Of a stretch of 54,435 nt of DNA, positions 51,217 to 53,831 are shown one piece after another. The notes under the pieces were generated by a model that was not told the origin of the DNA, made no database searches, and saw only the letters and a list, made by a program, of their open reading frames with translations. Made by a program: the position numbers and the translations under genes. This DNA is from Escherichia phage PhiR12_1: sequence record PV340549. One strand, given 5' to 3'. How positions within the stretch are numbered: position 1 is the stretch's first letter; each line of letters opens with the position of its first letter.

Positions 51217-51443
51217 AAAAAAGAGGGGCGCTCCAGCCCCTTGCTACAAAGCTATGGCTAAATAAAGAATACTCAGGTCGAGGAAATAATCTGGCAATGA
51301 TAATTAAAGGAGATGCAACGGCCTCCTTCACCCCTGTCAAAGATAAAAAACTGGGGAGTGCGTGCTCCCCGAGAGCATGATACTTGTGGTTGATAGTTAT
51401 TTTTATCCGGCGACAAAGATATTGAGATGAGGGCGTGGATGCA

Positions 51444-51635
51444 ATACAGAATTTTCGTATTGCATGGTAACTGCTGATTCCGGCAACTGAATGTTGCCCG
51501 GCATCTGTAAGTGAAAAACGGGGAGACGACAGACCCAGAAATTATACATGAGATAGTGGTGCTTTTTTATAAGCAACAGAATGGCTGCATAAAAAGAGAG
51601 CAAATAAAACAATCATCAAATACAGAATTTTCGTA
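51444..51635. repeat. 16-bp direct repeats atacagaattttcgta (51444-51459, 51620-51635) in AT-rich region upstream of the adhesin gene
   Basis: Exact 16-mer twice, 176 bp apart; first copy lies in palindrome tgcaatacagaattttcgtattgca. Confidence 0.6.
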
Positions 51636-52011
51636 GGCTGAGGGATTGCTGAAAATAATTTAGTGCGTCCTTCAATGGTTATCAGATTGTGCTGATGTAA
51701 ACAGTTAAGCACAATTTGATTATTTGACTTTCTTCTTTTTGTGACTGACTTCACAATTAAAGATGTAACCGTATACAAATTGTTGATGAATAAAGAGACA
51801 GCATAAGTGGCAGGCCAGTCGTAATGCGGATATCCCTTCGCGGACGTGATATCACCGACGTTATAGTAAGGAAATTCCGAAAAACTTTATATTAAAATTC
51901 GGAATTTCTTCAGGAGTAAGCTCATGAGAGCGGCGAGACATCAGATTTTCTTTATATATCCGATGTTGAACTGTTTTATTTGTATACAGATAATTTTATA
52001 GGGTATACCAC

Positions 52012-53091
52012 ATGAGCAAGAAATTTACAAAGACTATTCTTTCTTCTGCTGTTGCCGGATTGATGTTTGTTAGTTTTAGTTCGTTGTCTGCAAAACCTAC
52101 CGACAGAGTTGTAGGAAAGTATACAATTAAATTTTTTGGAGAAAATGGTGAGCAAGCAACAATTTTTGACAGCGGTAATAATAAAGTAATTATTGCTGAC
52201 ACGGTCACAGGAACTATTACAACGTTTAATAGAGGTGAGTTGGAGAAAAAAGTAAATGGTATAGATGTAAAAAAAAACAAGGATAAGGTTCAATCACTTC
52301 TGGAGTCTGTTCGTTACACTATTGATGCACCAGAACTAAAAAAAGAAAACATTGGAAATATAACAGAGGAAAAACTAAATAAACTAAAAGAAACCATCGA
52401 TATTGTTTCAGAAACCATTACAACAAAAACAGCAAGGGCTTATAACACAGCCATTAACAACGGTGTTAGTGTTGAGTCAGCTCTGGCTGCTGTTAAACAG
52501 GATTCGACAGGTGGGTTACTGAATGAGTTCAACCGTCTCGGCACAAATGTAAATGACCTGAAAAATGCCACTACATTTGCCCTTGATGAGAATGGTGAAA
52601 TTACTGATGGACAGGGTGTTGAAAGTGTATCTGTGAAGAGCGTTGTTGCGGGTGTGAAAGCAGATACAACAATTTATCAGAATAAAGATGGCAGCTATAC
52701 ACTTGACCAGAGCGCACCGGGCAACGTTCGTGTGAATGATGCTGTTGTCAGCCTCGACAACAGAACCCGCAGTAACACCCAGGCTATCCAGAATCACTCC
52801 CGCCAGCTGCAGGAGCATAACGCACGCCTGAACAGCCAGCAGCGCCAGATTCGTGAAAACCACGAAGAAATGAAACGTGCGGCAGCACAGAGTGCGGCGC
52901 TGTCCGGTCTGTTCCAGCCGTACAGTGTGGGTAAATTCAACGCCACGGCAGCCCTGGGTGGTTACAGTGACAAACAGGCTGTGGCCGTTGGTGTGGGTTA
53001 CCGCTTCAACGAGCAGACCGCAGCCAAAGCAGGTATTGCAGCCAGCGACGGTGATGTTTCCTACAACGTGGGTGTGAACTTCGAGTTTTAA
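52012..53091 (+). CDS. trimeric autotransporter adhesin (YadA-like C-terminal anchor; Eib-like prophage cargo)
   Basis: Signal peptide [27 protein letters not shown]; coiled-coil stalk; C-terminal anchor ...[65 protein letters not shown]. Confidence 0.8.
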
Positions 53092-53179
53092 TTGCTGAAA
53101 GTGACATGAAGTATGACGGCAGGCGCAGGACTCTGGTCTGCCGTTTTTCATGGGGCATAAAAAACAGGAAGGTGCTGCG

Positions 53180-53653
53180 ATGAAGGTGATTCTGGCGACC
53201 AGGAACCGCTATCTGGAGTATGGTCTGCAGGCGTTACTGAAGGAACACAGTGTGATACTGGCGAGGGAGTTTTTCCTGCCGGAGAACCGCCGTTATATCC
53301 CGGACTTTGACGAATCCTGGCTGATAATCAGTGATGGCCTGCTGGGCAGGCTGATGCGCTGTATGTTCCAGGGGCGTCATTTTCTGCAACTGGATGCGGA
53401 GTTGCTCCGTGATGGTGAGCAGATAAGTGATGCCATACACAACGGCGTCTGGACGTATAACAGTGCTGCCCGCCCGCTGACGATGTCAGAGATGGTGGTG
53501 ATGTTCGGTTATGTCTACCGCCAGTCGAGACCCTGCCGCCTTGCCAGTGAGATGGGTATTAACACGAAGACGGTGAATACCTTTCTGTATACGGGAATGG
53601 CGAAAAACGGGCTGTATGGTGTGAGCGTGAAACATCTTGCGTGTGCGGAGTGA
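53180..53653 (+). CDS. putative transcriptional regulator (LuxR/GerE-like C-terminal HTH)
   Basis: aggaagg RBS before MKVILATRN...; C-terminal LTMSEMVVMFGYVYRQS..RLASEMGINTKTVNTFLYTG resembles a LuxR-type HTH; assignment tentative. Confidence 0.45.
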   Translation: MKVILATRNRYLEYGLQALLKEHSVILAREFFLPENRRYIPDFDESWLIISDGLLGRLMRCMFQGRHFLQLDAELLRDGEQISDAIHNGVWTYNSAARPLTMSEMVVMFGYVYRQSRPCRLASEMGINTKTVNTFLYTGMAKNGLYGVSVKHLACAE

Positions 53654-53699
53654 TTCAGTGTTACCGGACCTGCAGCGTCTTCAGGTGATTCAGGGGCAG

Positions 53700-53831
53700 A
53701 TGATGAATAAAGACAAATGCCGTATGTACGGGAGAAAACGTTATACAGCGGGAGCAATGTGCTTCATGCTGTTTGTGTGGCTGGGTGGTGTGGTGACACT
53801 CTGTGCCGTTGCTGCAATTATCATGCAATAA
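53700..53831 (+). CDS. small hypothetical membrane peptide
   Basis: MMNKDKCRMYGRKRYTAGAMCFMLFVWLGGVVTLCAVAAIIMQ; weak RBS. Confidence 0.25.
   Translation: MMNKDKCRMYGRKRYTAGAMCFMLFVWLGGVVTLCAVAAIIMQ

Follow-up and report, generated by a model that had tools for sequence, protein, structure and literature searches.

An intact eib-type cargo locus in an ECOR-12-type lambdoid prophage encodes a headless trimeric autotransporter adhesin that lacks the IgG-Fc-binding stalk segment

The closest described counterpart of the locus analyzed here is the eibA locus of prophage P-EibA in Escherichia coli ECOR-9 (AF151091; Sandt and Hill, 2000, as cited in PMC13534694). EibA has been described as possessing an N-terminal domain only, with no beta-roll head (PMC12511318). 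The Fc-binding residues of the family have been mapped to D387/Y388 of EibD and D391 of EibG, and the D391A substitution abolishes Fc binding by EibG (PMC13534694); that paper prints "D378" for EibD, and the EibD sequence together with the adjacent EibG residues D391/A392 indicates that D387 is meant. ClaA and ClaB are Eib-related trimeric autotransporters without the IgG-binding Asp (PMC13534694, 2026). They nevertheless mediate chain-like adherence and serum resistance, and therefore Asp-less Eib-related variants can be functional (PMC13534694). The Cla proteins are described with a lollipop head and a saddle, with no N-terminal domain and in a context distinct from that of eib, and claB is found in ~96% of major LEE-negative STEC (PMC13534694).

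The window, by which we mean the whole stretch of 54,435 nucleotides under analysis (Escherichia phage PhiR12_1, PV340549), is an ECOR-12-type lambdoid prophage. It is 99.9-100% identical to the PhiR12 phages, for which a literature search found no paper, and 98.7% identical to a prophage that adjoins ssrA in NCTC9112. Its right end is closed by ssrA, the 3' end of which (54387..54435, minus strand; Rfam tmRNA E=2e-19; NCTC9112 annotation) is the prophage attachment site. The last prophage gene before attR is DinI-like (53868..54116, minus strand; Pfam DinI E=1e-16) and has its own terminator (53837..53856, minus strand; hairpin z=-5.0). A first-pass annotation made from the sequence alone had placed cargo downstream of the tail-fiber genes, and the region is indeed preceded by a tail-fiber assembly gene homologous to orf-191 (50698..51216, plus strand; Pfam DUF4376 E=2e-17; PHROG tail fiber families). 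The 5' part of this gene is cut off by an IS21-family insertion, and the gene is uninterrupted in NCTC9112. Next to it, on the minus strand, are two terminator-like elements, a G+C-rich hairpin with a T-run (51224..51241) and a second hairpin with a T-run (51353..51370; -11.6 kcal/mol, z=-2.8).

The cassette consists, in order, of the tail-fiber assembly gene, an upstream region, the adhesin gene, a terminator, orf-156 and orf-60, which is the layout of P-EibA, P-EibC and P-EibD, the P-Eib prophages of ECOR-9. In P-EibA, as in the window, orf-191, a stem-loop, the adhesin gene, a terminator, orf-156 and orf-60 follow the tail-fiber genes. The DNA upstream of eibA is 95-98% identical to the 795-bp upstream region of the window, and the P-EibA products ORF-156A and ORF-60 are 95% and 68% identical, respectively, to their window homologues, so that the resemblance to Eib loci seen at first pass is one of true homology. 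The intrinsic terminator 3' of the adhesin gene (53115..53150, plus strand; -22 kcal/mol, z=-3.3) lies at the position where the P-EibA, P-EibC and P-EibD records annotate a stem_loop. The ORF-60 homologue (53658..53831, plus strand), 57 aa long from a GTG start and with a hydrophobic C-terminal helix, falls in phrog_9340, of unknown function; no family was found for it in Pfam or NCBIfam, and PHROGs returned unknown-function families only. The locus thus represents, in intact form, the eib cargo locus that has already been described in lambdoid prophages of E. coli. The best explanation, which we regard as likely when taken as a whole, is that the cassette is moron-type cargo lying between the tail-fiber genes and attR of an ssrA-integrated lambdoid prophage.

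The adhesin gene (52012..53091, plus strand) is an intact ORF encoding a trimeric autotransporter adhesin of 359 aa, and an identical full-length protein occurs on 19 contigs in public data. Both the anchor and the stalk proposed in the first-pass annotation were recovered by domain searches. Pfam YadA_anchor matches aa 301-359 (E=1e-15; 58 bits, cut-off 22.7). Among solved structures, the YadA anchor 2lme was matched with E=1.7e-18, and aa 245-291 align with the coiled coil of EibD (2xzr, E=6e-8). The anchor is preceded by a putative signal peptide (aa 1-27), a variable N-terminal domain (aa 28 to ~185), and saddle-like strands with a coiled coil (aa ~186-300). By inspection and alignment, the leader has a charged, hydrophobic, A-x-A-like layout and is 55% identical to that of EibA; aa 1-20 have a mean pairwise identity of 0.9 within the family to which the protein belongs. 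The N-terminal domain was modeled at ~aa 30-175 as five strands plus helices with pLDDT 80-88, and a continuous helix was modeled at aa 242-295 with low confidence, the model being weak outside the N-terminal domain because only a monomer was folded. The modeled N-terminal domain fits the published description of Eib N-terminal domains, its similarity to Eib N-terminal sequences not being significant, and a BFVD fold search with the adhesin model gave no meaningful match. The 359-aa protein has no match to Pfam YadA_head, and neither has EibA; such a match is present in the 497-aa protein of PhiR12_3 and in the plasmid proteins. The gene product is accordingly classified, by sequence, as a YadA-anchor trimeric autotransporter without a head, as in EibA. 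Export would proceed through Sec, the C-terminal anchor would form a trimeric outer-membrane barrel, and the short coiled-coil stalk would hold the variable N-terminal domain at the tip.

Sequence comparison places the protein in an unnamed family, confined to E. coli, whose C-terminal half is invariant and whose N-terminal domain is hypervariable. This family comprises 174 clusters, none with a functional name, and every named source is E. coli; pairwise identity is 0.25-0.6 at aa 21-180 and 1.0 at aa 241-359, GC content is about 0.33 against 0.58, and family-specific DNA was found in 32 of 5426 complete genomes. By analogy with the Cla adhesins, we infer that the most probable benefit to the lysogen is adhesion, aggregation or serum resistance, with no Fc binding involved. 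With its invariant 3' half and its conserved upstream region, the gene appears to be framed by homology arms, and N-terminal domains and the IgG module may be shuffled between them. Eib-type adhesins are candidate factors for colonization and serum resistance in commensal and Shiga-toxin-producing E. coli, and prophages spread them.

The stretch before the adhesin gene had been noted as AT-rich, and its composition confirms this: GC content is 0.32-0.38 at 51500-52400 and 0.52-0.59 from the 3' part of the adhesin gene through the genes that follow. Several candidate sites lie in this region. A perfect CRP-type core, the consensus match TGTGA-N6-TCACA (51740..51755), lies 272 nt ahead of the ATG in all eibA-class alleles; no other match occurs in the window, although one or more turned up in 12 of 100 shuffles. 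An inverted repeat with a 13-bp stem (51869..51910, plus strand; -13.8 kcal/mol, z=-3.9) corresponds to the P-EibA stem_loop annotation. A promoter-like site identified by consensus match, TTGAAC-17-GATAAT (51966..51994, plus strand), falls within a proximal block, TTTGTATACAGATAAT...AGG, that is common to all eib upstream classes. A single eibA-type promoter module would drive three or more passenger designs, among them one that lacks the Fc-binding segment. A LexA box near the adhesin start was rejected on its spacing, CTGT-N11-ACAG rather than N8. Minus-strand ORFs at 51403-51612 and 51542-51778, including a 24-aa hydrophobic peptide, were likewise rejected as a hidden gene or toxin because indels of 114, 2 and 11 bp in related alleles break their frames. 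No other context of the distal upstream DNA was found in distant-mode searches of phage and E. coli genomes, which returned the same 27 genomes and 71 places.

The distal part of the upstream region holds the direct repeat AATACAGAATTTTCGTA, of which the 16-bp repeat reported at first pass is real and constitutes the inner part. This 17-mer occurs in exactly two copies in the window, spaced 176 bp; no further match was found in the window when up to 2 mismatches were allowed, and none of 100 shuffles had two matches. Copy 1 (51443..51459, plus strand) is embedded in a palindrome or hairpin at 51439-51465 (-10.8 kcal/mol, z=-4.1) and belongs to a 114-bp segment (51440..51553) that is present in most alleles and absent from P-EibA-type loci. 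Copy 2 (51619..51635, plus strand), ~392 nt before the ATG, is present in all eibA-class alleles and is the single copy of P-EibA. Searches of IMG/VR for the 17-mer returned 15 loci, 10 of which are homologous eib-type loci; the other five show no further similarity and were taken as chance matches. Conservation of the repeat is confined to the distal upstream region of the eibA class, and it need not be present as a pair.

It is quite possible, if still somewhat doubtful, that the repeat pair is a functionless structural relic, either the remnant of a short duplication or recombination joints bracketing an exchangeable or deletable distal segment. The copies bracket a variable block (51479..51618) in which 73% of the columns are invariant among 10 full-length alleles, against 92-97% in the flanks, and the 114-bp indel takes out copy 1 in some alleles. 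A TGCTGA motif 11-12 nt after each copy hints at an older and longer duplication. An Rfam scan of 51000-54435 at E up to 1 detected the tmRNA end only and no RNA family upstream of the adhesin gene, and no ORF is conserved on either strand because indels shift the frames, which also fits a relic. On the other hand, the end-points of the 114-bp deletion do not coincide with the repeat copies, and both copies are exact across alleles that are 89-100% identical, an observation that would fit a function as well.

The first-pass annotation had envisaged the repeats as binding sites for a regulator or nucleoid protein. That they are operators through which such a protein controls the adhesin gene, ORF-156, IbrAB and H-NS being the candidates, appears unlikely. 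The repeat is exact and non-random, both copies remain exact in alleles whose intervening block has diverged, the surroundings are AT-rich, and the core is an imperfect palindrome, TAC-N2-AA-N-TT-N2-GTA, of the type favored by dimeric HTH proteins; in addition, IbrB has been reported to enhance Eib expression (PMC7649339). The distribution of the motif nevertheless leaves regulator sites unsupported: P-EibA-type loci retain copy 2 alone, and the eibC, eibD, GER2, PhiR12_3 and plasmid loci all have ORF-156 homologues and no 17-mer at up to 2 mismatches. Moreover, its columns are no more conserved than the neighboring conserved blocks, the copies are as far as 392 and 568 nt from the ATG, and a 168-bp upstream region sufficed for eibG expression (PMC13534694).

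The first-pass annotation had also likened the protein itself to Eib proteins, and this holds for kinship, not demonstrably for immunoglobulin binding. In alignment, a 21-residue gap in the stalk removes DRIDYAVGAIDGRVTRNTQSI, including the residues equivalent to EibD D387/Y388, and the segment is missing in 22 of 22 aligned members of the family. It is kept by EibA, EibC, EibD, the PhiR12_3 protein and hybrids of 417-425 aa, the last of which have the same type of N-terminal domain as the adhesin and yet retain it. Since the IgG-Fc-binding stalk segment is absent, the adhesin is not filed as an Eib proper; another segment, for instance an IgA-binding one, could still bind immunoglobulin. That the 359-aa protein truly binds immunoglobulin as an Eib does, its gene being in effect a shorter eibA allele, is distinctly unlikely, even though the locus, the upstream DNA, the putative signal peptide and the C-terminal stalk and anchor are common with eibA, and ECOR-12 is reportedly among the ECOR strains that bind IgG. 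The missing segment holds the aspartate whose equivalent, when mutated in EibG, abolishes Fc binding (PMC13534694), and the 497-aa protein of PhiR12_3, a second ECOR-12-derived phage, keeps DRIDYAVG and could explain any immunoglobulin binding by ECOR-12. Labeling such genes "Eib" or "immunoglobulin-binding" from anchor similarity alone would be wrong.

Downstream of the terminator, the ORF-156 homologue (53180..53653, plus strand) encodes 157 aa with a short receiver-like domain and a LuxR-type HTH in its predicted fold; the start is placed at 53180, the mechanical ORF list beginning 10 codons earlier, at 53150. The HTH regulator proposed at first pass is supported by this fold and finds no counterpart among sequence families: searches of Pfam and NCBIfam gave no match, including to Response_reg or GerE, and PHROGs gave unknown-function families only. 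The AF2 model (pLDDT 90.2, pTM 0.86) was compared with the PDB by Foldseek, and the top 43 matches are all NarL/FixJ-type regulators (TM 0.3-0.46), the best being RcsB (E=2.6e-4), followed by EvgA, DesR, FixJ, LiaR, VpsT and DosR. A profile search of the PDB returned LuxR/GerE HTH proteins only, at E-values of 0.06-0.3, and the recognition-helix region aligns with LuxR/GerE structures and, by hhalign at a probability of only 2.5%, with RcsB. ORF-156 shares with RcsB/EvgA-like NarL/FixJ regulators a predicted alpha/beta N-terminal domain and a C-terminal four-helix HTH. In contrast to these regulators, its N-terminal domain is short and has only four strands instead of five, invariant T7/N9 replace the acidic pair after strand 1, and, as read from the gene layout, the cassette has no partner kinase gene. 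D52, after strand 3, is invariant, and the phospho-acceptor pocket is incomplete.

In four of the five lineages checked, ORF-156 follows a YadA-anchor gene, at a distance of 82-88 bp, in lambdoid prophages, a tailspike-type prophage, another prophage and a plasmid-like contig; one lineage does not adjoin any adhesin gene. Location of an orphan ORF-156 relative in the IbrAB island was considered and rejected: next to hpaBC, the island carries a PerC-family gene and no ibrAB. From the modeled fold, this long-unannotated partner gene most likely encodes an atypical, phosphorylation-independent DNA-binding protein of the LuxR type that travels with such adhesin genes, and that probably regulates the genes it adjoins. 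A more ambitious proposal, highly unlikely when all its parts are taken jointly, is that the adhesin gene and orf-156, with or without orf-60, together form a mobile module for a surface protein, self-contained and self-regulated. In it, ORF-156 would be an orphan phosphorylation-independent activator or anti-silencer of the LuxR type, produced by read-through of the adhesin terminator, and would activate the AT-rich promoter of its own adhesin gene, via the distal 17-mer pair where the locus is of the eibA class. Prophages and plasmids could use the conserved arms to exchange hypervariable tips and the IgG module, so that Fc-binding and non-binding surface variants would arise within one strain.

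It is extremely improbable that the adhesin serves the phage, through superinfection exclusion by receptor masking or as a virion component: its gene adjoins tail-fiber genes, some PHROG families matching its C-terminal part are labeled "tail" or "adhesin", and its hypervariable tip varies in a pattern like that of receptor-binding proteins, but its putative Sec signal peptide and outer-membrane YadA anchor point to a bacterial surface protein, the gene has an AT-rich upstream region and a terminator of its own, and homologous adhesin/ORF-156 pairs are found on a plasmid-like contig.

Compared with the described systems, the prophage cargo locus of the window is closest to P-EibA. The two differ in what follows the cassette, eaaA in P-EibA and dinI with ssrA in the window, and by the 114 bp with the second 17-mer copy that the window has beyond P-EibA. 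EibA itself shares with the adhesin a similar leader, the coiled coil, the anchor and the headless architecture with an N-terminal domain only, with ~60% identity over the last 166 aligned residues, whereas the sequences of the two N-terminal domains are unrelated at the BLAST level. The EibC, EibD and EibG loci have the same downstream genes as the window and a different distal upstream region, without the 17-mer. Their proteins share the saddle-like strands, the left-handed coiled coil and the YadA anchor (~51% identity over the last 230 aligned residues) but differ from the adhesin, which has no beta-roll head. From the Cla proteins, as these have been described, the adhesin is set apart by its eibA context, its predicted N-terminal domain and the rarity of its family DNA. 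It belongs, in sum, to a known kind, of which it is an ordinary and slightly variant representative, and does not constitute a new kind of system.

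The open reading frame at 52012-53091 (plus strand) encodes an adhesin of 359 residues, in which residues 301-359 match Pfam YadA_anchor (E=1e-15), with a match to a solved YadA anchor as well (E=1.7e-18), and residues 245-291 match the EibD coiled coil (E=6e-8). Since identical full-length proteins are found in public data, the gene is not a fragment, and the intact gene with a YadA-type anchor proposed in the first-pass annotation was thus confirmed. The adhesin shares its leader peptide with EibA; in its C-terminal part (166-230 aligned residues), identity is about 60% with EibA and 51% with EibD and peaks in the coiled coil and anchor. 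Neither this protein nor EibA has YadA_head repeats, which are present, in contrast, in a 497-residue protein of PhiR12_3, another phage of the same source-strain series, and in a plasmid relative. Published AlphaFold modeling describes EibA with an N-terminal domain only, without a beta-roll head (PMC12511318). In a monomer model of the adhesin, the N-terminal domain (about residues 30-175) consists of five strands and helices (pLDDT 80-88); the remainder, which depends on trimerization, is poorly modeled, as expected.

Compared with EibA, EibC, and EibD, the adhesin has a 21-residue (three-heptad) gap, which removes DRID(Y/A)AVGAIDGRVTRNTQSI. The missing stalk segment holds D387 and Y388 of EibD, and at the equivalent position of EibG the D391A substitution abolished IgG-Fc binding, with chain-like adherence retained (PMC13534694). 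The head-bearing PhiR12_3 protein has kept DRIDYAVG, and in 417-425-residue proteins of other genomes an N-terminal domain of the type seen here precedes a second saddle and an intact IgG segment, so that the 359-residue form represents a version without this module. Because of the missing segment and these comparisons with relatives, the protein is classified, as judged from its sequence, as a trimeric autotransporter of an Eib-related lineage rather than an Eib in the strict sense.

A search with the passenger alone yielded 174 clusters, none with a functional name; all source-named clusters of this family are from E. coli, and complete members have about 350-380 residues. When 22 diverse members are compared pairwise, their mean identity amounts to 0.9 within the leader, falls to 0.25-0.6 for residues 21-180, and reaches 1.0 for residues 241-359. 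The GC content, 0.32-0.38 in the 795-bp gene-free stretch upstream (51217-52011), remains low over the initial two thirds of the gene and rises to 0.52-0.59 from about 52700 on. This step and the identity profile mark the gene as a mosaic, and they indicate that variable tips may have been swapped between conserved arms, of which one comprises the upstream region and leader and the other the stalk, anchor, orf-156, and orf-60. The upstream module of the eibA class precedes at least three passenger designs, and the 417-425-residue hybrids found behind it in E. coli S1-CAM-02-A, SCU-104, JNEC-KY177, and 2012EL-2448 (loci L023-L026) appear to provide direct evidence for the shuffling of modules. 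Of 5426 complete E. coli genomes, 27 carry this upstream module, at 71 places in all (median three per carrying genome, up to 5), a repetition which implies that one strain may harbor several related prophages with such cassettes, as in ECOR-9. Junction DNA specific to the family was detected in 32 of the 5426 genomes; as claB is near-universal in major LEE-negative STEC (PMC13534694), this rarity makes it unlikely that the adhesin is claB.

The window ends with the tmRNA 3' end (Rfam E=2e-19), preceded by a minus-strand dinI-like gene, the last of the prophage (53868-54116). The right ends of phages PhiR12_2, PhiR12_4, and PhiR12_5 are 99.9-100% identical to this region, and an NCTC9112 prophage abutting ssrA is 98.7% identical. 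Upstream of the cassette lie the J gene, a tail-fibre gene, and a DUF4376 tail-fibre assembly gene; the latter is uninterrupted in NCTC9112 and split by an IS21-family element (about 48144-50720; minus-strand istB at 48228-48977 and istA at 48989-50530), an insertion that the PhiR12 phage records share. Two LexA-box-like palindromes, CTGT-N8-ACAG (54132-54147 and 54160-54175), lie 5' of the dinI-like gene and would fit SOS control of it.

The 157-residue gene reported downstream of the adhesin gene, orf-156, is indeed present (53180-53653), and it is followed by a 57-residue ORF-60 homologue (53658-53831). Its proposed identity as an HTH regulator fared less evenly: ORF-156 has no match in Pfam, NCBIfam, or a named PHROG family, and its profile hit solely LuxR/GerE-type HTH proteins among PDB sequences, weakly (E=0.06-0.3), while the predicted fold favors the proposal. 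The AlphaFold model, built with 22 homologues (pLDDT 90.2, pTM 0.86), has NarL/FixJ-type response regulators as all of its best 43 Foldseek PDB matches, RcsB first (E=2.6e-4), then EvgA, DesR, FixJ, LiaR, VraR, VpsT, and DosR. Unlike these regulators, ORF-156 has a short, four-stranded N-terminal domain and invariant T7/N9 in place of the acidic pair, with an invariant Asp52 kept; judged by its fold, it is probably an atypical, phosphorylation-independent LuxR-type DNA-binding protein.

The ORF-156 family comprises 44 clusters, all source-named ones from E. coli. Five lineages were examined, and in four of them the gene follows a YadA-anchor gene by 82-88 bp: in lambdoid prophages, in a prophage adjoining a LytS-type kinase gene, in a tailspike-type prophage adjoining prfC, and on a plasmid-like contig with ccdAB (outside lambdoid prophages, loci L033-L036, plasmid-like, L038-L041, and L042-L045). 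In the fifth, an island adjoining hpaBC, the relative is an orphan. This recurrent linkage suggests that adhesin and ORF-156 may form a functional pair, in which ORF-156 would regulate the adhesin gene. On the ccdAB-bearing contigs, the pair adjoins genes for a 1439-residue adhesin and a BamE/OmpA-like protein; at the prophage ends by the kinase gene and prfC, a DinI gene comes next on the opposite strand. The hpaBC-side island (L029-L032, L037) is decayed and holds a PerC-family regulator gene, IS remnants, and an extra glgS; its ORF-156 relative (55% identity) has a 1.15-kb unannotated gap 5' of it and no annotated adhesin gene beside it.

The exact direct repeat noted earlier in the AT-rich stretch was verified as a 17-mer, AATACAGAATTTTCGTA, at 51443-51459 and 51619-51635 (spacing 176 bp), with no further match in the window at up to two mismatches; two matches arose in 0 of 100 shuffles. 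Copy 2 is present in all eibA-class alleles, and copy 1 belongs to a 114-bp stretch (51440-51553) missing from P-EibA-type loci, so the pair is not essential. Of ten full-length alleles (overall identity 89-100%), nine carry the two copies unaltered, and the tenth has a single substitution in copy 1. The two copies flank the most variable block (51479-51618, 73% invariant columns), and it is at least as likely that they are a relic of duplication or recombination as that they serve regulation. The 15-bp core reads as an imperfect palindrome, and copy 1 sits inside a stable hairpin; a role as sites for a regulator or nucleoid protein, as first proposed, is possible but unsupported, given the patchy presence of the motif, a conservation (92-94%) equal to that of neighboring conserved blocks (92-97%), and distances of 392 and 568 nt to the adhesin ATG. 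For eibG, a 168-bp upstream region is enough for expression (PMC13534694). A general ORF-156 operator is unlikely: eibC, eibD, the GER2 and PhiR12_3 adhesin genes, and the plasmid loci are all accompanied by ORF-156 homologues, and yet the motif was not found upstream of any of them.

The window's only perfect CRP-type core, TGTGA-N6-TCACA (51740-51755), lies 272 nt before the ATG, constant across all eibA-class alleles examined; it is statistically weak, since 12 of 100 shuffles yield a match. A proximal block, TTTGTATACAGATAAT...AGG, is common to the upstream regions of all eib classes. Three hairpins upstream, with an A-run and GGGG(A/C), resemble intrinsic terminators on the minus strand (51224-51241, 51353-51370, and about 51514-51535, the third degenerate here and intact in the L006/L009/L010 allele), and another lies at 53837-53856; no minus-strand gene served by them was found, and their role may be to keep leftward transcription out of the tail genes. 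The nonamer TTTGTATAC occurs at 51771-51779 (minus) and 51979-51987 (plus), inverted and about 200 bp apart, and at 54137-54145 (plus), within a LexA-like palindrome of dinI; three copies were reached in 2 of 100 shuffles.

The comparisons made here establish the locus homology, the adhesin architecture, the absent stalk segment, the predicted ORF-156 fold, and the linkage of the two genes. As to lysogen phenotype and cassette regulation, we infer, as the likeliest mechanism, a unit of lysogenic-conversion cargo with its own promoter region and terminator, which would place on the lysogen surface a short adhesin trimer, with a variable tip that could give adhesion or aggregation. The adhesin probably adds to serum resistance while not binding Fc; complement resistance is a property conferred by EibG, ClaA, and ClaB alike (PMC13534694). 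Its expression would probably be silenced in AT-rich DNA and switched on by regulators of host islands or of the cassette, for which ORF-156 is a candidate; IbrB has been reported as an enhancer of Eib expression (PMC7649339).

The suggested resemblance to Eib proves to be true locus homology. In the GenBank records of the ECOR-9 prophages P-EibA, P-EibC, and P-EibD, as in the window, orf-191 (tail-fibre assembly), a stem-loop, the adhesin or eib gene, a second stem-loop, orf-156, and orf-60 follow one another. With the eibA locus, the upstream DNA shares 95-98% identity, ORF-156 95% (to ORF-156A), and ORF-60 68% (to ORF-60A); the hairpin annotated 5' of eibA has its counterpart at 51869-51910, and the stem-loop after eib in the terminator at 53115-53150. 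Loci of the eib type have been known since 2000, and the allele family described here is an uncharacterised addition to them, which, together with the fold assignment of ORF-156, extends that knowledge incrementally.
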